Shown in pieces: positions 9,279 through 53,363 of a DNA stretch of 64,000 nt (position 1 is the first letter of the stretch; each line of letters starts with the position of its first letter). This DNA comes from a bacterium (GTDB taxonomy: Bacteria; Patescibacteriota; Minisyncoccia; Phycocordibacterales; UBA2100): positions 1,066 to 65,065 of the forward strand of contig RFQR01000003.1 in the NCBI GenBank assembly GCA_009924895.1. Reading direction: 5' to 3'. A program made the position numbers and the translations under genes. Below the pieces are notes generated by a model that worked only from the letters and a program-made list of their open reading frames with translations, did no database searches and was not told where the DNA came from.

Positions 9279-10463
9279 TTGTATGATGCTTGGATGACAT
9301 TATTGCGCCCCCGGCAACACACTCTTTTAATTGCCCTCGTTGCAGTAATGCTTGGATATCCCATGTTGAAAATGGAGCAAATTCATACGCAGGAAACTTT
9401 TGAAATGCAGGGTCAGACTGCGGCTGTGAGTACCCCAGAAAAAGCACTGCCTGAAAAAAGCAACGAGATAAACAAAGAAAGATCGGGGCTTCCGACTTCC
9501 CCGATACCTCCAAAAGCTTTGACAGCCACACCTTCATCTTCAGACATACGAAGAGTAGGGATCACGACTAAACCCAACCAAGCGCAACGACTCATTAATC
9601 CCTACCCCTTCCCTCCTTCTGCACCCGAAATTATAAATGCGCAAGCCCGTACGGCACTCATAAATATTATCTGTGCCGGCGAAAATTCTATTCAGCCTGT
9701 TTCGGGAAGCGGTGTTTTTATCGATCCACGGGGCATTATCCTTACCAACGCTCATGTCGCGCAGTACGTTTTGCTCTCCGAAGACCCCCGTGTAGACCTC
9801 TCATGCTCCATCCGCTCCGGCTCTCCCGCCGAATCTCGATTTCGGGCTCGCGTGTTACACCTTCCGCGTTCATGGGTCGAGGAACACGCTGATGAAATCA
9901 ATAAAAGCAGGATCAAGGGTACCGGAGAACACGACTATGCGCTCCTTTTGATTACCGCCGGTGTCGACTCTCCCCTTCCCAGTACTTTTCCCTTCATACC
10001 TATCGATGCACGTGAGGCAATCGCCTTTACGGATGATACTGTCCTCACCGCAAGTTACCCTGCAGAATTTACAGGAGGACTTATAACACAGCGTGAGTTG
10101 TATGCTGTGAGTGCATGGGCACATATAACTGAATTGCATACCTTCAGGACAGGAACTGTTGACGCTTTTTCCCTGAGCAGTACAGTCGGCAGCCAGAGCG
10201 GTTCCTCTGGTGGCCCCGTTGTTAATGGCTGGCAACGTCTTGTTGGGATTATCACCACAATGAGCGGCGGGACTGCGACTGCAGACCGAAGCCTCCAGGC
10301 AATTAGTCTTGCCAGTATTTCTCGTGATATGCAAACTGATACCGGCTCGACATTAGAGCAATTTCTTACCCAAAATATTGAGGATCTGCTGGAGCGATTT
10401 GAAAAAATACGCAGCGAACTTTTGAATACTCTTGTAGCCCCGCTGTTGAAGCAACCTCGTTAG
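9279..10463 (+). CDS. Membrane-anchored trypsin-like (S1/HtrA-type) serine protease
   Basis: N-terminal TM helix; catalytic His (GSGVFIDPRGIILTNAHV), Asp (HDYALL), and Ser (GSSGGPVV). Confidence 0.7.
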   Translation: MYDAWMTLLRPRQHTLLIALVAVMLGYPMLKMEQIHTQETFEMQGQTAAVSTPEKALPEKSNEINKERSGLPTSPIPPKALTATPSSSDIRRVGITTKPNQAQRLINPYPFPPSAPEIINAQARTALINIICAGENSIQPVSGSGVFIDPRGIILTNAHVAQYVLLSEDPRVDLSCSIRSGSPAESRFRARVLHLPRSWVEEHADEINKSRIKGTGEHDYALLLITAGVDSPLPSTFPFIPIDAREAIAFTDDTVLTASYPAEFTGGLITQRELYAVSAWAHITELHTFRTGTVDAFSLSSTVGSQSGSSGGPVVNGWQRLVGIITTMSGGTATADRSLQAISLASISRDMQTDTGSTLEQFLTQNIEDLLERFEKIRSELLNTLVAPLLKQPR

Positions 10464-10637: not shown

Positions 10638-10708
10638 TCGGGCCGCTGGGAATCGAACCCAGTCTACATGGTCCCAAACCATGCGTACTACCGGTATACT
10701 ACGGCCCG
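10638..10708 (-). tRNA. tRNA-Pro (anticodon UGG), no encoded CCA
   Basis: Acceptor CGGGCCG/CGGCCCG, anticodon arm CATGG-TTTGGGA-CCATG, T-arm CTGGG-TTCGATT-CCCAG. Confidence 0.85.
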
Positions 10709-10814
10709 CTCTTTGAAAACAGTCGAATAGTACCACATTGCACGCTGATTGGCTATTTGAAGCTGAAAATACTCGACTTTTTAGTGTTTCGCGGGACTGA
10801 TTTATAAAAGACAT

Positions 10815-11195
10815 CTAAAGGACATTCTCCGTAAATCTGCATTGCGCCCTCTTTTGCTCGGTATTTAAAAATACCGCAATGACATCTACCTGTGCTTCTG
10901 AGTTGGGGTACTTTTCTCGTAAATAGAACTCACCTGCTTTTCGAATCTTTTCCACCTTTCTTGGATCCACCTTCTCTTCTGGGTCCATCATTTCACGTGA
11001 AAAAGCCGAATCGGGTTCACGTGTAACGCTTTTAACCTCAACAAAGTGAATAACTCCTTCCTTCTTTGCAATAATATCCACCTCTCCCCATGGCTTACGA
11101 TAGCCTGTTTCAATGATTCGAAAGCCTTTTTGCTCTAAGAATCTGCAGGCGATTAACTCGCCTGTACCACCCCATTTTTTATTTTCACTTTTCAC
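10815..11195 (-). CDS. yraN: YraN-family (UPF0102) predicted endonuclease
   Basis: GELIACRFLEQKGFRII...GEVDIIAKKEGVIHFVEVK. GTG start. Confidence 0.75.
   Translation of the reverse strand: MKSENKKWGGTGELIACRFLEQKGFRIIETGYRKPWGEVDIIAKKEGVIHFVEVKSVTREPDSAFSREMMDPEEKVDPRKVEKIRKAGEFYLREKYPNSEAQVDVIAVFLNTEQKRAQCRFTENVL
10991..11002. promoter_or_regulatory. TTTCACGTGAAA palindrome, site 1 of 4 (inside yraN coding sequence)
   Basis: Perfect 12-bp palindrome. Confidence 0.5.
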
Positions 11196-11201
11196 GTGAA
11201 A
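11190..11201. promoter_or_regulatory. TTTCACGTGAAA palindrome, site 2 of 4 (overlaps the yraN GTG start)
   Basis: Perfect 12-bp palindrome. Confidence 0.5.
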
Positions 11202-11236
11202 TAGTGTATCACCTTGATAAAGCTCTATTTTAATCT

Positions 11237-11248
11237 TTTCACGTGAAA
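11237..11248. promoter_or_regulatory. TTTCACGTGAAA palindrome, site 3 of 4
   Basis: Perfect 12-bp palindrome. Confidence 0.5.
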
Positions 11249-11390
11249 TGGTCTTTCATTCGCAACTACAGCTACCTTCAGAGTTTTCAGTACAAAACAA
11301 TGTTCCTGCTTATCCGCATAGTAGAGCCACAACGTATTTCACAAGAAACGTATTTATTGCTACGTAGGCAATACTCAGACGAGTGAACCA

Positions 11391-11402
11391 TTTCACGTGA
11401 AA
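11391..11402. promoter_or_regulatory. TTTCACGTGAAA palindrome, site 4 of 4
   Basis: Perfect 12-bp palindrome. Confidence 0.5.
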
Positions 11403-11516
11403 ATATGTTTCTTAAGTAACATACTAATGAACAACAATGAAAATCTGTTTTATCCATGTTTAACGCCCTACTATCCTGCTATGGTACAAAATACTGACTT
11501 TTACATCTTTTGTCCT

Positions 11517-11556
11517 TTATCCACATATCCCCACAGTTTTCCACAGTTATGCACAT
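11517..11556 (+). promoter_or_regulatory. Cluster of four tandem DnaA-box-like 9-mers
   Basis: TTATCCACA (perfect), TATCCCCACA, TTTTCCACA, TTATGCACA: tttatccacatatccccacagttttccacagttatgcaca. Confidence 0.5.
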
Positions 11557-11692
11557 TCTTCCCCTATTAGGACGTTATGCGTCTAGCCAATCTTTACCAG
11601 CCAACCAGGGGTATAGAGGCTCTTTCAAAAATTGTGACTTGACAAGAACACTTCTTTTGTAATAGGGTGGCGACACATCCTTGCTATTTCAT

Positions 11693-12631
11693 ATGAACCA
11701 TCTTCTTTCTCGTGGCCTCCTGAGTACCTGTTTGGGGATTGTTGTTTTTCTAAGTCTTAGCGCTACTGCGCACGCTGACGTATCCAGCGTTGTGGTTACA
11801 AAAACTCTTGGTACCGGTTCATGTACCCCTCTTATGGTTTCAGCAATTCGCCCCTATATCTACGACGGCAATTTGCACTCTTTTGATATAACAGTGCGCG
11901 ATAATTCGAATGTTGTCATCACCGGCATAGCGGGTACAGAGGCTATACCATTTGAGGCACTATCACGATGGGGTACTGGCGTCCCAGGAGAAATACGAAT
12001 GCACGTTGATGTAGACACAACGAGTCTGGTACGCGCTCTCCCCGTCACCGTTACCATGATTTCAACCAAAGGGCAGGGGAGTCCGATCTGTATTTCTAAT
12101 GTCCAGTTTGTGCTTCCGTCGCAAAAGCCAATACCTGAGCCTCAGGCGCCAGCGCTTCCAAACCCTGTCTCATACACACCGACAATAAGTGTCATACCTA
12201 AAAATGAAATCCCTTCAGCACCCTCTACCGGTAAGACACCGACATCAAAATCCGATAGCAGGGAAGGGGAAGTTGCCCAGAAACCTACCCCCGGTGTATC
12301 CGTAACGAGCGCACTCACACAATCACTAAAGCGCGCCTGCGAGACACAACGATCGTCGCAGACTATTTGGGGACTCCTCCTCCTTGGATATGCGCTTTTT
12401 GCTGCCTATATTGCACTTATAAAGCCAGGCTTCCTCGCACGCTCACTTGAGGGACTTGCCGCAGCTATTGTGCTTCCGTTCATTGCACTCGTCGGATTCT
12501 GGTACTTCGCTGAACACTGCCGAGGAGCGGAGTGGGTGCAGCTTTTAACACCCGCTATCGCTTTGATAGCGCTTGTGGTTGCGTTTTGGGAAGAAGAGAA
12601 GGCACAGACTCTACCCTTGCTGCCTCGATAA
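11693..12631 (+). CDS. Secreted/membrane protein, hypothetical
   Basis: A signal peptide (MNHLLSRGLLSTCLGIVVFLSLSATAHA) and C-terminal TM helices. The ORF track begins at the TTG at 11681. Confidence 0.5.
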   Translation: MNHLLSRGLLSTCLGIVVFLSLSATAHADVSSVVVTKTLGTGSCTPLMVSAIRPYIYDGNLHSFDITVRDNSNVVITGIAGTEAIPFEALSRWGTGVPGEIRMHVDVDTTSLVRALPVTVTMISTKGQGSPICISNVQFVLPSQKPIPEPQAPALPNPVSYTPTISVIPKNEIPSAPSTGKTPTSKSDSREGEVAQKPTPGVSVTSALTQSLKRACETQRSSQTIWGLLLLGYALFAAYIALIKPGFLARSLEGLAAAIVLPFIALVGFWYFAEHCRGAEWVQLLTPAIALIALVVAFWEEEKAQTLPLLPR

Positions 12632-13904: not shown

Positions 13905-14588
13905 CTATCGTTTTTTTACGAAATGTGCAAAAAGCAACTTCTGAAAAAATTGCATGGTGCGAAGTGTTCTTATTCCTGGAATTTCCAACCTTAAGCAACC
14001 TTTGTAGTTAGGTCTCTTTTTGTATTGCAATCCGGTTGGTTTATAAATCGTTTTCAAGAACTGCCCCAGCGGAACCCCGAGCTCTTTGGACCACCACTCT
14101 TCACACCGCTCGTGCGCGTATGACTTATGAATATACAAGCGGAATCTCATCTCATTTTTGGAAAACTTCAAAAACTTTTCTGCCCAGAGAACGATAACAT
14201 TCATCATTTCGCTATCAGAGTTAACAAACTGGAATGCACTGCTTCTCTTTGCTCCCTCAGCCCAGTACAGAGAAACTCCGGCGGTGAAAAAAGAATCCTC
14301 GGCAAAGTTTGTAAACATATGTTCGCATTCTTTAAACAATATTGCTTCCCTAGCAAGTCGTGCATTTCTGTGAGCGGATGCTGCACGTATTCTACCTTTT
14401 GTTACATTTTTACTAACTCGATTCAGGAGTGACCTCTTCTCGTCTTTTGTTAAAGGAAAATCTTTGAGCCACAGTGACAGTAAACTTTTTGCAACGGGCA
14501 GTATTTGTCGTATCTCACGGTAACTCAAGCCCCTCCTTCTTAATTGCATAGCCTGCTCTCTTTCTGAAACCAGTTTCCTCATGTACAT
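13905..14588 (-). CDS. HTH + LAGLIDADG-like protein, paralog of 8552..9247
   Basis: LRRRGLSYREIRQILPVAKSLLSLW (HTH), AGVSLYWAEGAK (LAGLIDADG-like), WSKELGVP. It ends 12 nt before the tRNA-Arg 5' end. Confidence 0.5.
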   Translation of the reverse strand: MYMRKLVSEREQAMQLRRRGLSYREIRQILPVAKSLLSLWLKDFPLTKDEKRSLLNRVSKNVTKGRIRAASAHRNARLAREAILFKECEHMFTNFAEDSFFTAGVSLYWAEGAKRSSAFQFVNSDSEMMNVIVLWAEKFLKFSKNEMRFRLYIHKSYAHERCEEWWSKELGVPLGQFLKTIYKPTGLQYKKRPNYKGCLRLEIPGIRTLRTMQFFQKLLFAHFVKKR

Positions 14589-32232: not shown

Positions 32233-35200
32233 ATGGGGTATACTGCCCCCATGTCAGACCATCTTCAGGCCCTCAACAGCGCCCAAAGGCAAGCGGCTGA
32301 ACATCTCCACGGCCCCCTCCTTATCGTCGCCGGGGCGGGGGCGGGAAAAACGAAAACCGTCACGCATCGCATAGCAAATCTCATTGCACACGGGGTGCCA
32401 GGCCACTCTATACTTGCCCTAACCTTTACGAACAAGGCCGCGGGGGAGATGAAGGAGCGCGTATACAAACTCCTTACTGGTACGGGGGGTGGCGTACCCT
32501 TTGTCGCAACATTCCATACTCTCGGGGTACGCCTTTTACGTGAATTCCATGTTGAAGCCCGGGTCCCCAAGCATTTCAGTATCTGGGATCGTGATGACTC
32601 GCTCCGTGCCACGAAGCGTATCTTGAAAGAGATGGGGGACGAAAAGAGCGCTCCTCGTACCATTTTTGGCGCACTGTCGAAGGCGAAGGGTCTTGGGAAA
32701 ACGATTCAAGAATACCGGGACGAGAGCTCGAGCTACTTTCGAGACCAAGTTGTACGAGTATGGGAGAAATACGAAACGACATTACATGAAGAAGGCGCAC
32801 TTGATTTTGAGGATTTACTTGTTCGCACCCGAAACCTCTTGCGCGACAACACCCATGTGCGCTCCCTCCTCAATCACCGCTGGCAATTTATCACGATCGA
32901 TGAGTATCAGGATACCAACGCAATCCAGTATGATATTGCTCGTCTTCTGGCCGGAGAAAAGATGAATTTGTGTGTCGTGGGCGACGTGGATCAATGCCTC
33001 GTTGAGGGTACACCAGTAACCATGGCAGACCAGACTCTAAAAAATATTGAGGAGATAAAAAGAGGCGACTGGGTCTTATCAAATTACGGACAGGGTTCTT
33101 TGCGTCCGGCACAGGTGCTCTCTACTCGAGCGCATACGACAAAAAAAATTGTGCGCATCACGTTTCAGAACGGAGATCACCTTGAAAGTACGCCGGAACA
33201 TATTCATTTTGCCGGTTATAAACTAGGATTGACTACTCAAACATATTTTACGTATCTCATGCACAAAAGAGGAAAGGGTTTCCGCCTTGGAGTATCCCAG
33301 GTATACACTCGGGGACAGAAACAAGCAGTGGTTGGATTTGTGCAACGATGCAACCAGGAGCATGCAGACGGTGTGTGGATTATTGAAACCCACAACAGCA
33401 TCCAAAAAGCGCGCGTTGCTGAGTATGTGCTGTCGCTCAAATACAAGATTCCTACACTACCTTTTGTTGCACGCAAAGGTGGAAGTACGAATGGATATGT
33501 ACATGACCAAACCGTTCTTGACGAGGTATTTGAACGCCTCGAAACCGAGAGCGCAGGAGAAGCACTCTTACACGATGCCGGATTATACAAAGAGTTTCCT
33601 CATCACGCGCCACGCTCTCGCGCTAGTAGCCGCAGGAATATGGTTATAACATTGTGCGCGAGTTCTCGCGGTAAAACGCCAATGCACACTATTTCGATAG
33701 TTGGTAACGATGCACAAGGAAAAAAAGATTTATTGGCACTTGGGTTTTCAGTGCGTCCTGCAAAAAAAGGTTCAGAAAGCTGGCGGTTTGAAACCGCGCA
33801 CGCGTCTTTTGACGACGTCATGTCTCGAGTCCAAAAAGTACTGTCCTTATGGCCAGATGCTCACATCATTAAAACTGCTCGACTTGGCGGCAAGAAGGAC
33901 AAACCTAAAGACGGTAATTCACTACCCTTTACTCCCGCATCTTCGGTACGCGCCGGTATGGTGCTCTTTAGAGCTGATGGAGGATATGAAACGGTACAGA
34001 GCGTTGAGACGATAGAAGCAAAACGATCGGTGTACGATCTCAACATCACCCCCACACACAACTTTATCGCGCACGGCATCGTGACCCATAACTGTATTTA
34101 CTCATGGAGAAATGCTGACATTGGGAACCTGCTCTTGTTTGAAAAAACTTTTCCTGGCACCAAAACCGTAACACTTGAGGAAAACTATCGTTCAACACGC
34201 ACCATTCTTGCCGCAGCAAACGGTGTGATAGAAAAAAATGTGCGACGAGTGCCAAAAAAACTCTTCACCCACAACGATACCGGCGAAGCAATTGTGGTCT
34301 ACGGGGCAGGGGACGAGACCGGAGAGGCTTTGTTTGTTGCAGGAGAAGCCGCGCGACTGGTGCGAGAGGGTGTGCGTCCGCACTCCATCGCCGTTCTCTA
34401 CCGTCAAAATTTTCAATCGCGCGCACTTGAAGAAGCCTTTTTACGTCTCAGGCTTCCATATCATGTTCTGGGGACACGCTTCTTCGAACGAGCAGAGGTA
34501 AAAGACGTGCTTTCATATCTGCGTGCAGCATTAAATCCCACAAGCGTGAACGATATTTCACGTATTATCTCCTCTCCACCGCGCGGCATCGGTAAGCAAA
34601 CGCTCGAAAAAATGTTTGCAAAGCAGGAGGCCTCGCTCCCCGCTGCAGCTCGAGGAAAAATCGCTGCATTTCGCGCCTCGCTCGAGAAAGTCCGTCATGC
34701 GTGCCTCACGCTACCACCATCAGAAACGGTTCGATTTGCGATAGAGGAGAGCGGTCTTGAAAAGCACTGGAGCGGAGATGACGAAGAATCAAAAGAGCGC
34801 CTTGGTAACATGCGCGAACTGGTAAACCTTGCGACCCGCTATGACCATGAGACACCCGAGGAGGGAATCGCGCACCTCTTAGAAGAAGCGGCGCTCCAGA
34901 GCGAGCAAGATACGTTGAAAGAAGAGGGCGGCATGATATCGCTTATGACCATTCACGCCTCCAAGGGACTCGAGTTTGATGCAGTATTTGTGACGGGACT
35001 CGAACAGGGACTTTTTCCCAATGAGCCGCGCGAGGAAGACATCGATCGCGATGAAGAAGAGGAACGTAGGCTCTTTTATGTCGCACTCACCCGTGCGCGC
35101 AAACATGCGTATCTGACATATGCCCGCTCGCGCATGAAATACGGTTCCCGCGAGAGTGCATTCCCTTCAGAATTTATTGCCGATATCGATGAACGCCTTG

Positions 35201-35283
35201 TGGAGGATCGCACCCCTGTTGAAGTAAAGAAGTTTTCTGGCTTTCGAGGATTTCTTGATGACGACGAGGACATTATTCGCTGA
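32233..35283 (+). CDS. UvrD/PcrA-family DNA helicase containing an intein
   Basis: Walker A GAGAGKT, DEYQDTN, and VGDVDQ|[intein]|CIYSWRNA (motif III interrupted). The extein is ~650 aa. Confidence 0.85.
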   Translation: MGYTAPMSDHLQALNSAQRQAAEHLHGPLLIVAGAGAGKTKTVTHRIANLIAHGVPGHSILALTFTNKAAGEMKERVYKLLTGTGGGVPFVATFHTLGVRLLREFHVEARVPKHFSIWDRDDSLRATKRILKEMGDEKSAPRTIFGALSKAKGLGKTIQEYRDESSSYFRDQVVRVWEKYETTLHEEGALDFEDLLVRTRNLLRDNTHVRSLLNHRWQFITIDEYQDTNAIQYDIARLLAGEKMNLCVVGDVDQCLVEGTPVTMADQTLKNIEEIKRGDWVLSNYGQGSLRPAQVLSTRAHTTKKIVRITFQNGDHLESTPEHIHFAGYKLGLTTQTYFTYLMHKRGKGFRLGVSQVYTRGQKQAVVGFVQRCNQEHADGVWIIETHNSIQKARVAEYVLSLKYKIPTLPFVARKGGSTNGYVHDQTVLDEVFERLETESAGEALLHDAGLYKEFPHHAPRSRASSRRNMVITLCASSRGKTPMHTISIVGNDAQGKKDLLALGFSVRPAKKGSESWRFETAHASFDDVMSRVQKVLSLWPDAHIIKTARLGGKKDKPKDGNSLPFTPASSVRAGMVLFRADGGYETVQSVETIEAKRSVYDLNITPTHNFIAHGIVTHNCIYSWRNADIGNLLLFEKTFPGTKTVTLEENYRSTRTILAAANGVIEKNVRRVPKKLFTHNDTGEAIVVYGAGDETGEALFVAGEAARLVREGVRPHSIAVLYRQNFQSRALEEAFLRLRLPYHVLGTRFFERAEVKDVLSYLRAALNPTSVNDISRIISSPPRGIGKQTLEKMFAKQEASLPAAARGKIAAFRASLEKVRHACLTLPPSETVRFAIEESGLEKHWSGDDEESKERLGNMRELVNLATRYDHETPEEGIAHLLEEAALQSEQDTLKEEGGMISLMTIHASKGLEFDAVFVTGLEQGLFPNEPREEDIDRDEEEERRLFYVALTRARKHAYLTYARSRMKYGSRESAFPSEFIADIDERLVEDRTPVEVKKFSGFRGFLDDDEDIIR
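32995..34092 (+). mobile_element. Intein (366 aa) inserted in helicase motif III of the UvrD-like gene
   Basis: Begins with Cys (CLVEGTPV, block A), has TPEH (block B), ends ...NFIAHGIVTHN, and is followed by Cys+1. The central domain is presumably endonuclease-like. Confidence 0.75.
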
Positions 35284-36155: not shown

Positions 36156-37070
36156 GCCGGTGCTTACCCAATCAGAAGCGCTGTCTGTATCGCGTGCCAA
36201 CGATGAACGAATAAGCGACGAGCCGCGAGGAGGTGTGGAAGCTGGTGTCGCAAACACCGCGGTATCGGTACCCCACGATAGGGCATCGACTATCACACCA
36301 CTTGAATCACGAAGTATTAGCTGTTCGTTCTGCAACATCGGCTGTGAAAATACGGCGGCAACAACAAGAGAGGGCGTAATCCTCCAATACTGAGCGGTCG
36401 CGACTGTCGGTGAAATAACTATGTATGCTCCCGAATTCAATACTGTATTTGCTGCAATAGTCGCCTGAGCACGGCTCGTGGCAATAGTCCAGCGTGATAT
36501 ATCGACAGGTGAGGCGGTTGGATTATAAAGTTCAATCCAGAGATTTTCTGCATCGGTACCGTGTGAAGAGTCCGAGAATGGGTACACCTCACTAACCAGT
36601 ATATGGTTCACCGCTCCCCCGCTATTTGGAGCCGTAGACGGATTTTCGCCTGATTGCCCACTACACGCGACACCCGCAATCTTGCATGCAAGCTGCGAAG
36701 GGTTGAGTGTCACGGGAGGCACACCAGTTCCCGGCGATCCTCCGCCAAAATTAAATCCAGAAGCATAACTCGAACCCATCATAAAAATTGAGTCGGCAGG
36801 CCAACTATCCACTGGACTAATCGACACTATACACATGTATGGTACGCCAGAGAGACCCAAAAGCCACTGACCAACTGATTTTGGCGGACCGAATTGATAT
36901 GTTCTTGTAGAAGGGGTCCATACAAAATCACCGCCGTTTGGTGGACCAAGGCGTGCAAATATTGCCGAGTTGTAACACCCGCGCACTATCGAAGCCTGCC
37001 CTCCGAAGGGGTATGCTTGTGCAACAATCGGAACAATCAGCACAACAAGCGCAAGCCATGCTAAACGCAT
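36135..37070 (-). CDS. Secreted lamin-tail-domain (LTD) protein
   Basis: Signal peptide; HILVSEVYPFSDSSHGTDAENLWIELYNPTASPVDISRWTIA is the LTD signature. Confidence 0.6.
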   Translation of the reverse strand: MRLAWLALVVLIVPIVAQAYPFGGQASIVRGCYNSAIFARLGPPNGGDFVWTPSTRTYQFGPPKSVGQWLLGLSGVPYMCIVSISPVDSWPADSIFMMGSSYASGFNFGGGSPGTGVPPVTLNPSQLACKIAGVACSGQSGENPSTAPNSGGAVNHILVSEVYPFSDSSHGTDAENLWIELYNPTASPVDISRWTIATSRAQATIAANTVLNSGAYIVISPTVATAQYWRITPSLVVAAVFSQPMLQNEQLILRDSSGVIVDALSWGTDTAVFATPASTPPRGSSLIRSSLARDTDSASDWVSTGSPTPGR

Positions 37071-37126
37071 GCAGTTATTCTAGCACCATTCTTGCCGGGC
37101 CTAGTCTCGTGGTGAATACTGTGAGT

Positions 37127-37945
37127 ATGTTCTCCACTCAGGCATGGGCGGTTTCGATTGCTGTTATTCTTGCGCTTGGCGCGCTCGTCGTTGCACGCCA
37201 CCAGCCGAGAGTGGTGGGTGAGGGATCGGTATGGACCACTGAAGCCATTGTCGAACCTTCGCTTGAACGCCGGTTTGCATCGCAACAGATTCAAGGCGAA
37301 ACACTCACCGCTCAAGACCTTCCCCTTGTCACGTTACGTAGCGCAGAAGTGCCTCCTCTTACGGAGCAATCCGGCGCCGCACAGACAAATCCTGCAAATG
37401 TGGCAGGGGAGAGCATTCTCAGCTCAATAGTTGCCGCGCTACCTCATGGCACTCTGACATTAGACTCTCCGCCGCAGGCTGAAAAACGCAGCTCCTACCA
37501 GCAAAACCTTTACGACTATGGCAATGCCGCTGGTCGAATTATTGAAGCATATCAGGCCGAATACCAGGCGCGGCAAGTCCCGATTATGCGAGATTTTTAT
37601 GCAGACAGACAAAACCTTGAGAAGCAGGCGGCGGTGCAAAAAATGGCGAAGGCTCTCGAAGAGGTAGGAGACTCTTTACGCGCACTGGATTCTGTTCCGT
37701 CAGGTACGCTCATCACTCACCAAAAACTCGCGCGTGATTATGTGAGTGTCGGTCAAAATCTTGCCACGCTCTCTCGAAGCGCCACCGATCAATCGCTTTT
37801 GGAATCAATTTCTACGTACAACACGAGTGTCGAATCGCTTATCAAAGACTATGTCGCGCTTGCCGACATGTTTTCACTTGCACAAGTAACGTTTTCGAAC
37901 GACGACCCCGGTCGCGTATTTGTCTTCACAAGTGCGTCGCTGTAG
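37127..37945 (+). CDS. Membrane-anchored hypothetical protein
   Basis: N-terminal TM; the start was moved to the ATG at 37127 to avoid overlap with the LTD gene. Confidence 0.4.
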   Translation: MFSTQAWAVSIAVILALGALVVARHQPRVVGEGSVWTTEAIVEPSLERRFASQQIQGETLTAQDLPLVTLRSAEVPPLTEQSGAAQTNPANVAGESILSSIVAALPHGTLTLDSPPQAEKRSSYQQNLYDYGNAAGRIIEAYQAEYQARQVPIMRDFYADRQNLEKQAAVQKMAKALEEVGDSLRALDSVPSGTLITHQKLARDYVSVGQNLATLSRSATDQSLLESISTYNTSVESLIKDYVALADMFSLAQVTFSNDDPGRVFVFTSASL

Positions 37946-37993
37946 TACACACTTTTTTCATACACCTGCCGCTGGGCGCGGTATACTGAAGAG

Positions 37994-38809
37994 GTGAATT
38001 CATTTCGTTCCGCACTCGGTCGTGGGCGCTTTTTGATTAGCGCGGGGTTTTCGCTCTGTCTTGTTCTCGGTACGCTTTTCTATGTTGCACACACCAAGGA
38101 AATCGCTCAGCCACATTTCAGTCGAGTTACCGAAGTCGCGACCTCGACTGCATCTGGAGCAGAAAAACCAAAGTGGCAACAATACCTCCTCTCGCAAGCT
38201 TCAAGCCCTCCGCGCGCATCGGATGATGTGATTCTCTCGGGCGCAAGCGATGCGCTGACCGAACGCGTTTCGCAGCTGTACACCGTCATGCAGAAAGGGG
38301 GACTGTATACGCCCGAAAATCTAAGCCAGGTAGGAGCAACCGTCGCCGATACCATGAAATTGGAACCGACCTTTGACCGAATAACACGCGCCGAGCTTAC
38401 TATCGACCCTGATTCTTCATACGATCGCATGCTCACGTATCGCGCTGATATGCGCGTTGCGCTCGAGCCGCTTCTTACAAACAAAGAGCCCGAATTTGAG
38501 GTGTTTGCTCGATATCTCGAGACCAAAAATGAAATATATCTTGAACAGCTTGCAACTACTGCTGCAAACTACACGCGGGCAGCACGTCAGGCGCGCGCGG
38601 TTCCCGTTCCTGTTGACGCAGCTGAGGCACATGTCCGGACGATAAACTCACTCTCACTCTTTGCAACAACACTGACCCACATGAGCAAGCACGGCGCAGA
38701 CCCCGTTGCTTCTCTCATGCTCTTACGTGCATACAACGATGCTGAACAGGAAGTCTTTTCTGCATTCAACGAACTCGCACTGTATTACCGAAACAAAAAA
38801 CACGTATGA
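37994..38809 (+). CDS. Membrane-anchored hypothetical protein
   Basis: N-terminal TM (FLISAGFSLCLVLGTLFYV). Confidence 0.4.
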   Translation: MNSFRSALGRGRFLISAGFSLCLVLGTLFYVAHTKEIAQPHFSRVTEVATSTASGAEKPKWQQYLLSQASSPPRASDDVILSGASDALTERVSQLYTVMQKGGLYTPENLSQVGATVADTMKLEPTFDRITRAELTIDPDSSYDRMLTYRADMRVALEPLLTNKEPEFEVFARYLETKNEIYLEQLATTAANYTRAARQARAVPVPVDAAEAHVRTINSLSLFATTLTHMSKHGADPVASLMLLRAYNDAEQEVFSAFNELALYYRNKKHV

Positions 38810-40326
38810 AGCGCGCCTTTCTCGTTCTTATACTCGTACCCTTTTTTGCATCGGCCCAAAGTACGGGAGGTCCGAGCGCCCTCCTTACCCAGCCAGGCGG
38901 GCTTGGGAACTGCAGCCGCACCGGAGCGTACTCGATGAGTGTGGGTGCGTTTTCTGCAATCGGTGGTGTCTATGTGCCCGTAAACGATGCCGCAGTAACT
39001 CTCAACACCGGATATTTGGTCTACAAGGAATGTATCTTGCGTCCTGCGGTCAACAAGCAGCGCGAGGCGATAACTGCAGAAATGGTAGGAAAAGCGGCGA
39101 AAAGAATCCTAAACGGCAGAGACGGTGGGGCATACTACCTGCAGCGCTTTGATGAAGCAACCAAAATGGCAAACAAAGCGGCAGCAAGAGCGTTTGAAAT
39201 TATTCAACCTCAGGTAAAGCCTGAGGTTTTGCGCGCATCAGCGAAGCGGTACGTGGATAGCCAAAAGGTAAATCTTGAGTGTCCGAAAAAAGCAACCGCA
39301 CAATCGTCTGCATGGCAGAGCCTTGCGAATTTGCGAGATGAGCGCTGTGACGAGTACCGCGCCTCGCTAGCAGTTCGCTCGTATGTCGAAACGCAGGTCG
39401 CACTTGCCCAAGAGTGTTTTTGGAAGAATTTGCAATACGGCGAAGGCTTCTATCCTGTTACCGAGGAAGACCCCGACTCAGTTTGTGAGAAAATCCTTAC
39501 ACCGGCATCGGTGGTACGTGAAAGTTTCCAAAACATCATAAGCTCTCCTACGCGCCAAGCAGAAGCGGCAAATGATGTGGGGCAACTCATTAGCCCGCTT
39601 TTTGCGAACCTCGAATCGCAGGCTATTGGATCTGAAAAAGGCCTTGAGGGTTTACTCCAGGCTGCGGGGGGATTGCCGTCGTATATCGACCGCATGATGA
39701 GAGAGTCGGCATCGGGTGCCCGGGTGAGCGCTCTCAATATCGGCATCAGTATCCTTAATGCATACCGACAAATAGAATCAGATTATCTTGCCGCAAAAAC
39801 ATCAATAAAAACTGCGATCGAAAATGCAAAAAACCAGCTCCGCTCAGCTGAAAGCCAGTGCTGGAGCACAATCATCAGCAAAGTCTGCCAGTCAAACGTT
39901 ACCTCACAAAACACCTGCACTGATGCAACCGGGACTACGCTGCGCATCGCAACCACGACTTCCGCTTCTCAGGCGGTTATTGATTCTCAGATTACTCCAA
40001 TAGTCGGACAGGTTGACAGCGACATCACCAAATCACGCTCCGCACTCGACAGACTCAACGCAATTGCTGCAGGACTTACGAGCGGAAATTCCACCACCCA
40101 AGCACAAGCACTTGCACAACTTGACGCTCTCGCGGCAACAAACAGTATTCATAATCAATATGATCTGCAGCAGGCTCGCCAGCAACGAGACGATGCCACC
40201 AATGCCCTGAGTACGTTGGTACAAGACGCTATCAAGGCATGGCAAACATCAACCGATGTAACTACGGGGTGGTGCAATGTCGATAATGCCGCCGTGATTA
40301 CGCGTTGGAAAAATCAATGGAAATGA
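38806..40326 (+). CDS. Secreted hypothetical protein (T4SS-cluster associated)
   Basis: Signal peptide MKRAFLVLILVPFFASAQS; 506 aa. Confidence 0.45.
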   Translation: MKRAFLVLILVPFFASAQSTGGPSALLTQPGGLGNCSRTGAYSMSVGAFSAIGGVYVPVNDAAVTLNTGYLVYKECILRPAVNKQREAITAEMVGKAAKRILNGRDGGAYYLQRFDEATKMANKAAARAFEIIQPQVKPEVLRASAKRYVDSQKVNLECPKKATAQSSAWQSLANLRDERCDEYRASLAVRSYVETQVALAQECFWKNLQYGEGFYPVTEEDPDSVCEKILTPASVVRESFQNIISSPTRQAEAANDVGQLISPLFANLESQAIGSEKGLEGLLQAAGGLPSYIDRMMRESASGARVSALNIGISILNAYRQIESDYLAAKTSIKTAIENAKNQLRSAESQCWSTIISKVCQSNVTSQNTCTDATGTTLRIATTTSASQAVIDSQITPIVGQVDSDITKSRSALDRLNAIAAGLTSGNSTTQAQALAQLDALAATNSIHNQYDLQQARQQRDDATNALSTLVQDAIKAWQTSTDVTTGWCNVDNAAVITRWKNQWK

Positions 40327-40328
40327 GT

Positions 40329-42692
40329 ATGAAAAGATTCATTATTTTGTTTACTTTTGTTCTCATATCGGTCTCTACATCTCTCACTTTTCCTTCACAC
40401 GCAGATGCAGCCTCATGCCCTGCAGGAACAACTGCTAAACCAAAAATGGAACCTATCACGGGACTAACAATGGTCGACGGCTGCTACAGAGGTGACAAAC
40501 TGGTAGGCTATGCTGGTTTCAATTCATATGTACAAATTGAACCAATCTCATGCAAGGGTACGTATAACTACTCAAAGAACCTTCCCGATTGTATTTTACG
40601 GAGTTTTTCTGTTTGGGCTGGCACTACGCTCATATCAGCTTCTGCTTTTCTGCTCACTATAACTGGTCTTTTATTCAACCTAGTTATCACGAAAACTATA
40701 GCGCTCTTTAGCACCACACTTGCCACTACGGGGGCGCAATCGTTTATAAATGTGGCTTGGACGATTTTCCGCGATATTGCAAACATTCTTATCGTCGGCA
40801 TATTTATCTACCTCGCAATTATGATTATTGCAGGTCAAAACTCGCGTGGCAAAAAACAATACATAGCACATGTGATTGTCGTTGCTACACTCATAAACTT
40901 TAGCCTCCTTTTTTCGGTCACCATTGTCAAAGTTGGAAACGCCGTTGCTACCACAATTTATCCCGCTCTTACCGGCGAACCTGTTGCATCACTCCAAAAG
41001 GATGGCTGGGGTGGAGGAGTTGGTTTTGGTATAACAACCAACGATCCTCGGGCATTTCCGAGAGATGGTGTCGCTGGCAGTTTCATAAAAATGCTTGGTA
41101 TTACGGGTCTTTCGGACACAAAAGAGATGCTTGATGAAGTAGCCGAAACAAACGACAGCGCATCTCTTCCTATACTTCACGGTCTCTTTGCTGCAACAGT
41201 GCTTCTCTTTGCTAGTGCTGTATTTTTATTCGCGAGCTTGCTTTTAGTAGTCCGTGTTGTCATACTTCTTTTTCTGATGATACTCGGCCCGATTGCTTTT
41301 GCCGCTTTTTTGATTCCGAACTATTCAGACAAATTTCTTTTATGGTGGCGCAATCTTATCCAATACTCACTGATTGCCCCGGTATTGTTTCTTCTTCTTT
41401 TAGTCACTAAGCAAATGGCAACAGCAGTAACAGCAGGCTCCGGTGGCGGGACGCTTGGGGGAGCGTTGGGCAAACCGGGCGAATACACTAATATTGTTGC
41501 ATTCCTAAACTATTTCCTTGTCGTCGGCATGCTGGTTCTAACCGTATATCTTACGATCAGGTTTGCGCAGGTGGTCGCGGGAGGAAATTGGGCGGCAGCT
41601 CTCACCCTGCTTCCTATCACAGGAACTGCGCTTGGCGCCGCTGCGGTTCTGCGCAATTGGCGCGGTGCAAGAGCATATCGTGAAATCAATCAACGAAATA
41701 CCGAGATCGAAGCTACAAAGATGGACCGTAGCTTGACGAGTGAAGCGCGGATCGAAAAACTGAGAAGTCTCATGGAAATGCGTGACAAGGCAACGCTCCG
41801 CTCAGGAAAGGAATACAACGCAATGAATGCAAAAGTATTTGGTCGCTCAATTGGCGATAGGATCGGCGGTTTGGTGGGAACTGTGCCTAAACCATTGTCA
41901 AGAGTTATCACTGGTACAACCGAGGGTGGTGGTTACGCGGGCCGTGTAAAAACCGCTGTCAAAGAAGGTGAGGGCGAGTTCAAGGATCTTGGATACTCAG
42001 GCGCAGAACAAGAGAAATTCATCACGAATTTGCAAAAAGAAACAGCACAACAAAAGGAAACCGTTGAGAATAGTCGCAGGGCTGCCAAAGAACTTGCGGA
42101 CGAGACTCGTGATTCACTGCAAAGCGCTCGAGACGAGGCGAAGACCGCAGCGACTATAGAGATGAATCCGCTAACGAAACGTCAACAAATAGAAGTAAAA
42201 AAGCAAGTAGACACCTTGAAAGACAAGCCCGCGGACGAACGAGAAACCGCAATGAGCGGCATGAGAGAAAGGATAAGAAAAGCGGTTCGGGCAAGCCTTA
42301 AATATCATGATGCTGAAACTGAACTTAAACTCCATGATCGTGATGTTAATACCTCAATGCGGCGCTTTGATGCAACGAGCGCGCGGCTCGATGCGCAGTT
42401 ACAAGAACAGCGCCAAGAAGGACTCACTCAACTGCAAGGATACGCTCAGGCGCTGGGTAATCAGATTGCAAGCAAAGTCGGGGACGATGTGGGCAAGGCT
42501 ATTGCCAAGAACGTCGGGATTAGCGACTCTTTGAAACAGTTCAAAAAAGAGCTTGAGAAGTTGCCGAAGGCAGTTACCTCAGCACAACAGCGCGCCACTC
42601 GCTTAGATCGCCGAGCAAGTACGCTTGAAGCCCGAACTGGCCTGCGCTCTCCTGGTCCCACCGACGGCACGTTCCCGCCTCCTCGCGCCTAA
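40329..42692 (+). CDS. Polytopic membrane protein, VirB6/TrbL-like T4SS component with a C-terminal coiled coil
   Basis: Signal/TM start, then many TM helices, then a long charged C-terminal tail. Start at MKRFIILF, just after the upstream stop. Confidence 0.5.
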   Translation: MKRFIILFTFVLISVSTSLTFPSHADAASCPAGTTAKPKMEPITGLTMVDGCYRGDKLVGYAGFNSYVQIEPISCKGTYNYSKNLPDCILRSFSVWAGTTLISASAFLLTITGLLFNLVITKTIALFSTTLATTGAQSFINVAWTIFRDIANILIVGIFIYLAIMIIAGQNSRGKKQYIAHVIVVATLINFSLLFSVTIVKVGNAVATTIYPALTGEPVASLQKDGWGGGVGFGITTNDPRAFPRDGVAGSFIKMLGITGLSDTKEMLDEVAETNDSASLPILHGLFAATVLLFASAVFLFASLLLVVRVVILLFLMILGPIAFAAFLIPNYSDKFLLWWRNLIQYSLIAPVLFLLLLVTKQMATAVTAGSGGGTLGGALGKPGEYTNIVAFLNYFLVVGMLVLTVYLTIRFAQVVAGGNWAAALTLLPITGTALGAAAVLRNWRGARAYREINQRNTEIEATKMDRSLTSEARIEKLRSLMEMRDKATLRSGKEYNAMNAKVFGRSIGDRIGGLVGTVPKPLSRVITGTTEGGGYAGRVKTAVKEGEGEFKDLGYSGAEQEKFITNLQKETAQQKETVENSRRAAKELADETRDSLQSARDEAKTAATIEMNPLTKRQQIEVKKQVDTLKDKPADERETAMSGMRERIRKAVRASLKYHDAETELKLHDRDVNTSMRRFDATSARLDAQLQEQRQEGLTQLQGYAQALGNQIASKVGDDVGKAIAKNVGISDSLKQFKKELEKLPKAVTSAQQRATRLDRRASTLEARTGLRSPGPTDGTFPPPRA

Positions 42693-42698
42693 CACGGT

Positions 42699-43271
42699 AT
42701 GAACACTCCTTCATCTCAACAAGATATCGTTGCCCTGCTCCACGAACGCTTTAGTGCGCTACCGCAAGTGGTGCAAGATGCGATTCGGTCCTCGGATATT
42801 GAACATCAGTTACAGGGCCTTGCTCGTACACACAAACTGCACCTTGATCAATGGGAGCTCTTGGAAAACGAAGTGTTACTTGCTCTCCTTGGCGTAACCT
42901 CGGCGGGAGATCTTCAGAGCGCAATCCAATCAAAAACGGGCATAGATACAGATTCTGCCAAAGCTCTTACCAGTGATATTTCCGCGGCTATTTTTGAACC
43001 AATTCGAGCCGAGTTGGAACGCGACCTCGATCACCCGAGCGCAGTAGAAAAACAGGAAACTGCGGTAGAACAAGTGCGCACCGAGCTCCTTGCAGAATCT
43101 AAACGTGACGCTTCGGTATTGTTGCCAGCACCAAAAGCACCTGCCGTTGCCCCGACCACGCCACCACCTCCTAAACCCGAAACAAAAGCGGTACGTGAGA
43201 TAGTGCCGTCGGTAGAAATCTCGTCTCCTAAAAAGATCGCTATAAACGACCCCTACCGCGAACAGGTGTAG
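42699..43271 (+). CDS. Hypothetical protein
   Basis: 190 aa, Pro-rich C-terminus. Confidence 0.35.
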   Translation: MNTPSSQQDIVALLHERFSALPQVVQDAIRSSDIEHQLQGLARTHKLHLDQWELLENEVLLALLGVTSAGDLQSAIQSKTGIDTDSAKALTSDISAAIFEPIRAELERDLDHPSAVEKQETAVEQVRTELLAESKRDASVLLPAPKAPAVAPTTPPPPKPETKAVREIVPSVEISSPKKIAINDPYREQV

Positions 43272-43314
43272 AAAACTCGAAAGCCACTTCTTCAAAAGAG
43301 CTATACTGTAGAGA

Positions 43315-43815
43315 ATGCAGTTTCAAGTACCGCAATTTATTGAGGTCGAGGATAAGATTTTTGGTCCTCTCACCTTTAAGCAGTTTGTCTACGTCCTCGG
43401 TGGACTCGGATGCGCCTATCTTGCGTATCGCATGCTGCCCCTTTACGCTGCTGCGCCGTTTATGCTCTTAGGCGCGGCGGCAGGCGGAGCACTCGCTTTT
43501 ATGGAATACAATGGGCGGCCTCTCATACTTGCGCTTGAGCATGGTTTTTTCTTTTTGATTCGCTCGAAGCTGTACCTCTGGAACAACACCCGCCAGTTGC
43601 CGGTACGCGCTCCGACGAAAGACGCGACACCGCAGCCCCTGCCGTATGTTCCTCGTTTGTCGGAGAGTAGGCTGCATGAACTCTCGTGGAGCCTTGATAT
43701 AAAAGAGCGCATCAGTGATGGCGTTGCGACCCAAAAAGATCGCACACAGAACACTAATTCTTTGAGCACCATCGTCGCGCCCGTGCGCACTGCGCGAGAA
43801 AGTCTGATACGATGA
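43315..43815 (+). CDS. PrgI-family (VirB3-like) T4SS membrane protein
   Basis: MQFQVPQFIEVEDKIFGPLTFKQFVYVLGG... is the PrgI-like N-terminus, with two TM helices. Confidence 0.6.
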   Translation: MQFQVPQFIEVEDKIFGPLTFKQFVYVLGGLGCAYLAYRMLPLYAAAPFMLLGAAAGGALAFMEYNGRPLILALEHGFFFLIRSKLYLWNNTRQLPVRAPTKDATPQPLPYVPRLSESRLHELSWSLDIKERISDGVATQKDRTQNTNSLSTIVAPVRTARESLIR

Positions 43816-43822
43816 CCCTCGT

Positions 43823-44467: not shown

Positions 44468-44517
44468 GCGTTACCGTGCCATCGGGGCGGTTTTTTGCGG
44501 TATACTTTTTCTAACGT

Positions 44518-50570: not shown

Positions 50571-50627
50571 GGGAAAGAGTATAGACTAAAAGCGTCAAAA
50601 CTTCAATGGTTGGGGTGTGAATTGAGG

Positions 50628-50708: not shown

Positions 50709-52061
50709 ATGCAAGAAATGAGTAATCGCGAGCTCTGGCAGAATGCACTTGTTCAGATTGAGCTCGGCACCTCGCCTGCAAGCTTTCACACTTGGTTCCG
50801 TTCGACCGACATCACCCATCGCGACTCAGGCACCGTACAAGTCGCTGTTCCCTCGAAGATCGTTAAAGAATGGTTATCGCAAAAACACCACAAAACGATT
50901 CTTGGCGCACTACGAAACCTCGACAGCTCAATCCGCACTGTGGAATATGTAGTGCATCGGGTATTACCAAAAGAGGAGCGTCGCAAAAAGGCACAGCCAC
51001 CAACAAACGCCTCCCTCGATCTCCAGGCACTCTATATCGACAAACGCGACAACCTAAACCCTCGATACACCTTCGAAACCTTTATCGTGGGTCCTTTTAA
51101 TGAGCTCGCACACGCTGCGTCAAAAGCAGTCGTAGAGCGGCCCGGGCTTTCGTATAATCCGCTCTTTATTTATGGCTCGACCGGACACGGAAAAACGCAT
51201 CTTATCCAAGCAATTGGCAATCACTTCAAAAAAACACATGCGAACAAGAAGGTGTTTTATGTCACTTCTGAGCGCTTTGCTGTCGATTACATCAACTCAG
51301 TTCGTGCGGGACGCGCAAACGCCTTTAAAGACCAGTATCGCCAGTATGACGTCCTTATCATGGACGACGTCCAGTTCATCGCAAACACTGAAAAGACTCA
51401 GGAGGAGCTTTTCCACCTTTTTAACGCGCTGCGCGACAGCAACAAGCAAATTATTTTTTCATCAGATAAACACCCTGCGCTTCTTCCTGGATTTGAAGAT
51501 CGTATAAAGGGCCGCTTTAGCGCAGGCCTTATCGCTGAAATCCCTGAGCCTGATGTTGAATCTCGTATTGCCATCATACGCGCAAAGCTCGACCAGCACG
51601 GTTTTTCTCTCGGAGAAGACATTATTCAGCACCTTGCAGAGAACGTGCGCGGCAACATTCGCGAACTCGAAGGCATTCTCAATATGATTGTCTGCAAATC
51701 ACAACTCAAAGGCCGCCCCGTCACCATTCTCGATGTTCGCTCGTTAGTAAAGCACAACGTCAAACCGAGTCGGGGAATTTCGATTGAAGAAGTGATTCGC
51801 CGCGTGTCGCAGTACTACGAAGTGCCTGAGAAAAATATTCTCGAAAAAACACGTAAGAAAGAAGTAGTGAAGCCACGACAGGTGATTATGTATCTTTTGC
51901 GTGAAGAGTTTAATGTTTCTTTTCCAACGATTGGGGAAAAGCTGGGAGGACGCGATCACACAACCGTTATTCACTCATGCGAAAAAATCAAGACCGACCT
52001 CAAAAATTCACCGGCGCTTGAACAAGAACTGGATCATGTTCGTTCACTTCTTCACTCGTGA
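50709..52061 (+). CDS. dnaA: Chromosomal replication initiator DnaA
   Basis: Walker A GSTGHGKTHL, the AAA+ core, and a C-terminal DNA-binding domain. Start at MQEMSNRELW; the long ORF-track N-extension was discarded. Confidence 0.9.
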   Translation: MQEMSNRELWQNALVQIELGTSPASFHTWFRSTDITHRDSGTVQVAVPSKIVKEWLSQKHHKTILGALRNLDSSIRTVEYVVHRVLPKEERRKKAQPPTNASLDLQALYIDKRDNLNPRYTFETFIVGPFNELAHAASKAVVERPGLSYNPLFIYGSTGHGKTHLIQAIGNHFKKTHANKKVFYVTSERFAVDYINSVRAGRANAFKDQYRQYDVLIMDDVQFIANTEKTQEELFHLFNALRDSNKQIIFSSDKHPALLPGFEDRIKGRFSAGLIAEIPEPDVESRIAIIRAKLDQHGFSLGEDIIQHLAENVRGNIRELEGILNMIVCKSQLKGRPVTILDVRSLVKHNVKPSRGISIEEVIRRVSQYYEVPEKNILEKTRKKEVVKPRQVIMYLLREEFNVSFPTIGEKLGGRDHTTVIHSCEKIKTDLKNSPALEQELDHVRSLLHS

Positions 52062-52271
52062 ACAGCATGTGAACAGTACTGAAAAACAGTATGAACAACC
52101 ACTGCATATGCACTACCAAGTATCTCCATGCACCTCAACTACTCTCATAATCCACACATCTCACCGCGATTATTCCAAAACTATTCACAGAAAAAAATTC
52201 TCGGAACATCATATCTTGTTTGATAAAAAACACTTATTCACAGTACTAACAGCACTAATAGTAATAGTAAT
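52062..52271. other. Candidate oriC: AT-rich dnaA-dnaN intergenic region with three same-orientation DnaA-box-like 9-mers
   Basis: TAATCCACA (52148), CTATTCACA (52181), TTATTCACA (52234), plus A/T tracts (aaaaaaattc, aatagtaatagtaat). Confidence 0.55.
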
Positions 52272-53363
52272 ATGAATTTTATAACTACAAGAGAATACCT
52301 TCTCCGAACAATTGCACTCACTGAGCGTGTGGTTGGAAAAAAAGAATCACTCCCGGTTCTCTCATGTTTTTCAATAACAATAGAAAATGAATGCGTTGTG
52401 CGAGCAACGAATCTTGAGTCAGGAGTCCAAGTGGTAGTACCGGGCGAGATAAAAGAAAAAGGGGTTATTGCAGTTCCCGCCGCACTTTTTAGCTCAGTAG
52501 TCCGTTCGCTCTCCTCTGACCCTATAACACTTCGTAGCGAAGGAGATAATCTTCTTGTGGAAGCTAAAGGAAGTAAAACCCTGGTAAAGTGTGTTCCTCA
52601 TGAAGAATTTCCCGTGTTTTCAATGGCACAAGGAGAAACTGAAGTGTTGCCCCGTGTCGAACTTATCAAAGCGATACAATCGGTACTGTACGCGGCCTCG
52701 CCGTCAATGATACGCCCCGAGCTGGGAAGCGTTCTGGTGCGCTGTGACGAGGGAGAGCTTATCTCCGCAGCAACCGACTCATTTCGTTTAGCTGAGAAGA
52801 GAATACGCGGCCTCACAGGTGGTTCTATTGAACTCCTTATTCCACTCAAGCATGCACAAGAGCTGCTGCACATCCTTGAGAAAATATCAGGTGATACGCT
52901 CTCGATTGCAATCTCGGACTCTCAGTTGGTGGTGAAGGTTGAAGCGGTTATCTTTTTTTCTCGCATTACCGAAGGTTCGTTTCCTCAGTATACGGAGGTT
53001 ATTCCAAAGCAGTTTTCTACCGAGGCGATAGTTCTTAAGAGTGACCTATCTGACACACTCAAAAAGGCACGACTCTTCTCGGGTACTGACCACCATATCG
53101 GTTTTCATCTCTACCCGAAGCGAAAGATTTTTTCTGCAACGGCGCAGAGTCCGAATGTAGGGGAAATGTCAGAGGTCCTCGAAGGATCAATAACCGGTGA
53201 GGATCTTGATATTAACTTTCACTTAGGCTACCTCGGTGACTGTCTCGCAAGCATTCCGTCGGACAGTGTTACCTTGCAATTTGCAGGCGTCGGGCGGCCA
53301 CTCGTTATGCGCGGAGTTTCCGATACGACTTTTACGTACCTGGTAATGCCACTCAATCGATAG
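52272..53363 (+). CDS. dnaN: DNA polymerase III beta sliding clamp
   Basis: Three-domain beta clamp, 363 aa, immediately after dnaA. Confidence 0.85.
   Translation: MNFITTREYLLRTIALTERVVGKKESLPVLSCFSITIENECVVRATNLESGVQVVVPGEIKEKGVIAVPAALFSSVVRSLSSDPITLRSEGDNLLVEAKGSKTLVKCVPHEEFPVFSMAQGETEVLPRVELIKAIQSVLYAASPSMIRPELGSVLVRCDEGELISAATDSFRLAEKRIRGLTGGSIELLIPLKHAQELLHILEKISGDTLSIAISDSQLVVKVEAVIFFSRITEGSFPQYTEVIPKQFSTEAIVLKSDLSDTLKKARLFSGTDHHIGFHLYPKRKIFSATAQSPNVGEMSEVLEGSITGEDLDINFHLGYLGDCLASIPSDSVTLQFAGVGRPLVMRGVSDTTFTYLVMPLNR

Follow-up and report, generated by a model that had tools for sequence, protein, structure and literature searches.

The window analyzed here comprises 64 kb of contig RFQR01000003.1 from a member of the Patescibacteriota, and the element under study is an array of short palindromes located in and immediately upstream of yraN, the gene that holds or adjoins the parS cluster discussed below across the class Paceibacteria. 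A spacer of 490 bp, containing sites 3 and 4 of the array, separates yraN from a divergently oriented gene (Table 1) that is lineage-specific (4/80 relatives), the usual divergent neighbour of yraN being cca (58/80 relatives). The 12-bp palindrome TTTCACGTGAAA is present in exactly four perfect copies in the window, at 10991-11002, 11190-11201, 11237-11248 and 11391-11402, each centred on CACGTG. This count agrees in number and coordinates with a preliminary description of the stretch, which had also correctly placed the first site in yraN, the second on its GTG start codon and the remaining two in the spacer.

Table 1. Features of the yraN region and of the dnaA region in the 64-kb window
Feature	Position	Strand	Remarks
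yraN	10815..11195	-	Pfam UPF0102, E = 6.5e-22; nuclease-like protein, role unknown
parS-like site 1 (CATTTCACGTGAAAAA)	10989..11004	.	inside yraN; minus strand codes F65-S66-R67-E68
degenerate parS-like site, core GTTCACGTGTAA (11015-11026)	11013..11028	.	codes V57-T58-R59-E60 of YraN
parS-like site 2 (CTTTTCACGTGAAATA)	11188..11203	.	overlaps yraN GTG start codon (11195-11193)
parS-like site 3 (CTTTTCACGTGAAATG)	11235..11250	.	~45 bp upstream of yraN
extra one-mismatch DnaA box (TTATCCGCA)	11310..11318	+	
degenerate copy, core TTTCACAAGAAA (11337-11348)	11335..11350	.	same variant in L008 (related locus) at 6314
parS-like site 4 (CATTTCACGTGAAAAT)	11389..11404	.	borders AT-rich stretch
AT-rich stretch, ~25% G+C	11403..11450	.	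between parS sites and DnaA boxes
three-DnaA-box array: TTATCCACA (perfect), TTTTCCACA, TTATGCACA	11517..11555	+	reads TGTGCATAAcTGTGGAAAActgtggggataTGTGGATAAaggaca on yraN strand
divergent secreted/membrane protein gene	11693..12631	+	ATG at 11693; no Pfam match
dnaA-dnaN, with rpmH-rnpA-yidC-jag diverging leftward	50709..53363	+	classical origin marker, not part of array

The earlier claim that the array is not due to chance holds: no match to TTTCACGTGAAA appeared in 100 dinucleotide-preserving shuffles, the 64 kb contain no further perfect copy, and the 8-mer TCACGTGA is absent from them outside the array. Occurrence of the motif at comparable density elsewhere had been named as the observation that would point to a generic repeat or a restriction-modification site; a search of the window and of the relatives' loci found the motif absent elsewhere. 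Seven contigs of the same organism, assembled independently and including one from a freshwater metagenome, all have the four sites. Two degenerate copies, GTTCACGTGTAA at 11015 and TTTCACAAGAAA at 11337, fall within the same 410 bp. The former lies 24 bp from site 1, and pairs with this spacing also occur at two related loci (L008, 6610/6634; L010, 357/381). L010 moreover carries a site at the position matching site 2, that is at the yraN start, while the position of site 3 is the most conserved one in relatives (-40 to -110 of yraN). Rfam returned only four tRNAs at gathering score for the window and nothing better than E = 2 for 10700-11800, and a sigma-70-type promoter scan of the spacer gave no match.

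The palindrome TTTCACGTGAAA matches the central 12 bp, positions 3-14, of the canonical parS of bacterial chromosomes, TGTTTCACGTGAAACA, whose consensus has been tabulated for many Gram-positive and Gram-negative species (PMC7022226). When compared with the parS consensus TGTTNCACGTGAAACA, all four sites match at 12 of the 12 inner positions and carry A or T at positions 2 and 15. The palindromes are very likely chromosomal parS sites and the array a loading array for a predicted ParB (Spo0J). As a positive control, 0.8 Mb surrounding the ParB genes of an unrelated collection were searched; seven perfect 12-mers were found where ~0.05 were expected, all of them at most 2 kb from parB. One control locus (L205) has four canonical sites in an array, 36-54 bp apart, and another (L181) has an A-flanked variant, TATTTCACGTGAAATA, within the parB gene. 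parS and DnaA-box origins belong to textbook knowledge, and the array is an element of this ordinary kind.

To place the array in a phylogenetic context, one genome per GTDB species was scanned with a YraN alignment, yielding 80 Paceibacteria loci that include Kaiser-, Adler-, Nomura-, Yonath- and Yanofskybacteria; some of the neighbouring genes are conserved from locus to locus, so that the species are not entirely independent of one another. In 65 of the 80 species, one or more cores with at most one mismatch lie at -600 to +500 of the yraN start. The 88 kb closest to yraN contain 63 perfect cores and 87 with one mismatch, compared with 0 and 6, respectively, in 514 kb downstream and 10 and 51 in 573 kb upstream, where the listed positions are mostly 0.6-3.5 kb off, toward cca. 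By comparison, 0.94 Mb centred on dnaA in 80 close relatives (DnaA 70-82% identical) contain no perfect and a single one-mismatch core. The motif is also found at yraN in all three more distant relatives that share the gene order cca, yraN, trypsin-like protease, HU, and at two of these loci (L012 and L013) the exact 16-mer TGTTTCACGTGAAACA immediately precedes yraN. Among 71 upstream sites in the 80 species, 27 are exact copies of GTTTCACGTGAAAC and eight are exact copies of the 16-mer; the half-site consensus obtained from non-coding sites is (T/C)G-TTTCAC. Across the window and the relatives' loci, the distribution is that of few-copy, origin-proximal parS, the 64 kb containing a single cluster at a distance of 39 kb from dnaA-dnaN. 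As the position is conserved in species whose YraN proteins are merely 35-59% identical, the array is not a recent insertion.

The copies inside the yraN reading frame coincide with a V/I/F-T/S-R-E motif ([VIF][TS]RE) of YraN, and 44 such motifs were compared across diverged species. Codon usage within them is strongly restricted: the Arg codon is CGT in 39 of 44 (background 20%), the Glu codon is GAA in all 44 (background 64%), Val is encoded by GTT in 37 of 37 cases and the Ser/Thr codon is NCA in 36 of 44. The joint combination NCA-CGT-GAA, which is retained by the orthologous in-gene sites of relatives, is found in 31 of 44 motifs, where ~3% would be expected. The in-yraN copies are thus maintained by synonymous codon choice (GTT-NCA-CGT-GAA), indicating that selection acts on the DNA; the yraN reading frame thus doubles as a carrier of parS. 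Up to four parS-like sequences are found in yraN at fixed codon positions (window and L014-L093), at about +48 (F-L-V-K), +145 to +169, +190 and +320 to +340, and the V(T/S)RE repeats of YraN may be partly owed to the DNA sites.

The preliminary description had also mentioned a DnaA-box cluster in the same region. The boxes are real, one being perfect (11517) and three having one mismatch each (11310, 11537 and 11547), and their proximity to the palindromes is meaningful. When boxes with at most one mismatch to TTATCCACA were counted across the 80 species, their density was 5.4/kb at -250 to 0 of yraN, 2.2/kb at -500 to -250 and ~0.4/kb elsewhere, a more than 10-fold enrichment upstream of yraN, and 50 of the enriched boxes are perfect. 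A single orientation is shared by 149 of 177 boxes, with a phasing of ~10 bp. In the relatives, the conserved module reads aaaaCTGTGGATAActcTGTGGAcATGTGGATAAaGGACA, followed by ~100 bp of ~70% A+T, a parS site and yraN. The phased boxes of this module are kept in 66 of the 80 Paceibacteria species at -150 to -350 of yraN, with AGGACA after the three boxes, and the window bears the same module on the minus strand (11555-11517). The AT-rich stretch at 11403-11450 is a candidate DNA-unwinding region, where the duplex might open. Many relatives (L018, L023, L033, L037, L039, L048, L053 and L058) have a second recurrent motif, AAAATATGGCTTAAAATAAGG, in the interval from the DnaA boxes to parS; this motif also occurs at about 11440-11465 on the minus strand of the window and might act as the yraN promoter or as a further origin element.

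Strand composition points to the same spacer. Averaged over the relatives, GC skew turns from negative to positive exactly at the cca-yraN spacer, and a strand-corrected regression of skew at third codon positions (GC3), using 952 genes, placed the best breakpoint at -1000 to 0 of yraN. Of 42 species, 36 show a positive right-minus-left difference in skew (p = 3e-6).

The spacer lacks the adjacency to dnaA that is usual, though not obligatory, for an origin: dnaA lies at most 10 kb from yraN in just 3 of the 80 relatives. With jag, yidC, rnpA and rpmH pointing away from dnaA and dnaN, the window is an origin-type neighbourhood at about 49-53 kb, and weak DnaA boxes occur near dnaA at 50628, 50639, 52148 and 52234. 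Given the called dnaA start near 50709, the first two of these boxes are in the 139-bp rpmH-dnaA spacer, and the other two are in the dnaA-dnaN spacer. The mechanically delimited dnaA ORF (50523-52061, 512 aa) exceeds the called gene (450 aa).

Taken together, the box array, its orientation, the skew break and the distant dnaA point to the cca-yraN spacer, which is probably where replication starts in this class or, failing that, a conserved DnaA-binding element linked to the origin. In that case the centromere and the start site of replication would form one unit of a few hundred bp, at a distance of 39 kb from dnaA. Published work on Patescibacteria equates the origin with dnaA, by assumption (PMC12102498). 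A more far-reaching scheme, plausible to us yet somewhat short of probable, would have the true origin of Paceibacteria in the cca-yraN spacer and not in the dnaA flank, fused to the only parS of the chromosome, with extra parS copies written into the codons of yraN. The system would perhaps operate without ParA, through ParB and SMC, and the lost guanine discussed below would predict a ParB with changed specificity residues.

Based on established ParB biology (PMC7022226, PMC8299390), which we infer to apply to this array, a ParB dimer would recognize each palindrome via its helix-turn-helix domains, then shut as a CTP-dependent clamp and slide onto the adjoining DNA. The four strong and two weak sites would give rise to a single ParB-coated partition complex over ~0.5 kb, spreading to a few kb and thereby covering both the yraN region and the DnaA-box region. 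Such a complex would label the origin region, once newly replicated, for segregation, and would recruit and load the SMC condensin. ParB occupancy at the yraN start may also damp yraN expression.

Several observations weigh against this interpretation. Concerning the origin, a gene-wise skew regression on the window with its extensions (78 kb in total) was ambiguous as to the breakpoint between ~11 kb and ~52 kb; moreover, the dnaA flanks of close relatives also hold boxes, mostly imperfect, together with a weaker skew flip. Concerning parS, sites 2 and 3 fall on the start codon and the likely promoter of yraN, so that a secondary effect on yraN expression is possible, and none of the eight half-sites has G at position 1, all having A or T. 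A standard ParB might therefore be weaker at these sites, or the ParB of the lineage may be altered. Finally, neither parB nor parA was found in the window, in the adjoining sequence (~9 kb on its left and ~5 kb on its right) or in ~2.2 Mb of related loci. The window was searched with six-frame motifs and with Pfam on 40 ORFs, the related loci using tblastn with four ParB/Soj sequences, a hidden Markov model (HMM) built from 120 ParB proteins and phmmer with Soj. A search of a database using a ParB alignment showed the query sequences to be valid; it returned only Helicobacter, Thermus and Firmicutes-like proteins and no ParB from Patescibacteria. The cognate ParB of this genome is accordingly a predicted one. 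COG1475 we take, from its COG name, to be the ParB/Spo0J orthologous group, which the old release called 'Predicted transcriptional regulators'.

A published table assigns COG1475, under that older name, to 13 of 17 Parcubacteria genomes and smc to 14 of these 17 (Nelson & Stegen 2015; PMC4508563 Table S1). The COG1475 gene of the closed RAAC4 genome lies ~200 genes from dnaA, and in several genomes the COG1475 locus tags are close to dprA, dnaX and clpB. A distance of ~200 genes would account for no ParB having been found near dnaA or yraN, although the listing for 13 of 17 Parcubacteria does not prove a ParB in this particular genome. The core-gene table has no ParA row (PMC4508563 Table S1), and this, together with the lack of a Soj/ParA-like ATPase in the ~2.2 Mb searched, suggests that the lineage may use a ParB-SMC system without ParA. 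Two publications that review or describe Patescibacteria make no mention of ParB.

The guanine at half-site position 1 deserves separate consideration. In Caulobacter, Arg173 of ParB hydrogen-bonds guanine 1 of the half-site GTTTCAC, and the paralogue Noc reads adenine 1 through Gln (PMC7383237). G occupies this position in 56% of the half-sites of the closest relatives and in 77% of those of more distant ones. It is a specificity detail that does not exclude parS membership, since natural parS varies at its outer positions. Either the outer positions matter little to the ParB of the lineage, or its recognition residues have changed. The control loci L181 (5929-7629) and L205 (5956-7536), both from viral_contigs, encode long ParB proteins (~530-570 aa) of phage/plasmid type with Gln at the Arg173 position. 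L181 combines this Gln with the A-flanked TATTTCACGTGAAATA in its own gene, and L205 has the same Gln and yet four tandem canonical sites (4011-4170) 1.9 kb upstream. The link between Gln at position 173 and an A-flanked site is therefore weak, and a rule pairing the two is unsupported, given the canonical G sites of L205.

The preliminary description had interpreted the array as an operator for a dimeric transcription factor; such a factor would control yraN and the divergent membrane-protein gene. Its notion of sites for a dimeric protein stands, the protein being of the helix-turn-helix kind; the operator function is not supported, in view of the parS core, the single cluster and the canonical 16-mer in relatives. 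The palindromic symmetry, the overlap of two sites with the yraN start codon and promoter zone and the known ability of ParB-type and other helix-turn-helix dimers to repress adjacent genes (PMC7022226) would fit an operator. Such a role is nevertheless very unlikely, as exact canonical parS occurs at the same locus in relatives and no other site is present in the 64 kb, nor any perfect core in the 0.94 Mb of the relatives' dnaA regions. The maintenance of in-yraN copies by synonymous codons is likewise not predicted by an operator model, and the divergent partner gene is not conserved, its place usually being taken by cca. No regulator gene is linked or adjacent to the array, and the combination expected of a regulon, sites in several promoters with an identifiable regulator, was not found. 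An origin-specific factor distinct from ParB, such as an initiation regulator peculiar to the lineage that converged on or co-opted the parS sequence, would explain the close interleaving of the sites with DnaA boxes, the lack of ParB and ParA in the sequence searched and the loss of position-1 G in this strain. It would, however, require convergence, as 14-16 bp of parS identity throughout the class is hard to explain without ParB, and the group is reported to have COG1475 among its core genes; we regard this explanation as quite unlikely.

The 20-nt inverted repeat formed by sites 3 and 4, 134 nt apart, could be taken for the remnant of a repeat or mobile element, such as the ends of a miniature inverted-repeat transposable element (MITE), and CACGTG is a known restriction site. 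Both ideas are exceedingly improbable. Similarity between copies reaches no more than 2-4 nt past the 12-mer, additional copies are absent, and the five other CACGTG hexamers of the window all lack the flanks. A MITE would be expected to have a long body, many copies and target-site duplications, whereas the similarity here spans 14-20 nt in four copies at one locus, whose position is conserved over the YraN divergence described above. A resemblance arising as a by-product of YraN protein constraints plus chance, to which we likewise attach next to no probability, would be in keeping with two of the six sites lying in codons of the conserved V(T/S)RE. Three of the perfect sites are non-coding, however, synonymous positions are fixed far above the expectation from codon usage and the shuffles gave 0 matches, so that this explanation is effectively refuted.

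As parS sites, the palindromes share the core TTTCACGTGAAA within TGTTNCACGTGAAACA with the chromosomal parS/ParB (Spo0J) systems of Bacillus subtilis, Caulobacter crescentus, Thermus and others, in which the sites are likewise few in number, clustered near the origin and in some cases located in coding sequences. They differ from these in having A or T instead of G or C at the outer positions and in forming a cluster tied to yraN and not to parB, with no parA or parB in the 84 kb of readable sequence and with a DnaA-box array only 100-350 bp away. A similar packing of several copies near the origin is known from the four-parS cluster beside oriC of Pseudomonas aeruginosa (PMC4368675), where one cluster is a functional centromere. 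There, the consensus is TGTTCCACGTGGAACA, a parAB operon is linked and function was established by genetics, whereas function is inferred here. One half of each site in the window shares the A at position 1 that is typical of the Noc-binding sites (NBS; inner sequence ATTTCCCGGGAAAT) of Firmicutes, and NBS and parS, which differ at half-site positions 1 and 6, are both bound by ParB-family proteins (PMC7383237). The present sites are not NBS, however, as the NBS centre is CCCGGG and not CACGTG. In addition, NBS are scattered over the chromosome, avoiding the terminus, in contrast to the single cluster observed here. To our knowledge, no Noc is known outside Firmicutes.

With respect to ParA, the closest parallel is the ParA-less ParB-parS-SMC arrangement, for example that of Streptococcus pneumoniae (PMC7022226, PMC4488948). 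No ParA-like gene was found in the sequence searched here either, and ParB and SMC may be the whole system, the absence of ParA here applying to the searched loci. Escherichia coli oriC is an example of an origin located away from dnaA. Like such origins, the cca-yraN spacer has a DnaA-box array and an AT-rich region tens of kb from dnaA; it differs from them in that the array is joined directly to parS, and its origin role is predicted.

The literature searched yielded no description that connects Patescibacteria with parS, with yraN or with an origin away from dnaA, and we found no earlier report of parS at yraN, far from dnaA, the element itself being of a known kind. No concept is changed by the finding; its interest lies mainly in the conserved origin-centromere module and in the drift at parS position 1, the latter being a natural case for co-change of ParB-parS specificity. 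Should the landmark hold, it would be of use for orienting metagenome-assembled genomes and checking them, for interpreting replication-rate estimates from read coverage and for designing replicating or segregating vectors for Patescibacteria genetics.

Some further features of the window were recorded. Two paralogous ORFs, 8552-9364 (-) and 13905-14588 (-), each lie beside a tRNA gene, the second of them standing between yraN and cca in this genome. An N-terminal helix-turn-helix is present in both, recognized in the first as a sub-threshold Pfam HTH_23 match and in the second by eye; their GEG motif looks LAGLIDADG-like, and the ORFs resemble relics of homing endonucleases. A UvrD/PcrA-type helicase gene at 32233-35283 (+) is split by an intein (Pfam Intein_splicing, Hint). 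A type IV secretion-like cluster at 36938-48529 (+), with a PrgI-like protein and a VirB4/TraG P-loop ATPase, adjoins jag-yidC-rnpA-rpmH and dnaA, in agreement with a report of such a cluster beside the dnaA region in Patescibacteria (PMC12102498). Between tig and clpP, at 3717-4349 (-) and in the neighbouring genes, an AbiEii-type toxin gene is accompanied by a DUF6922 gene; the two have the appearance of a toxin-antitoxin pair.

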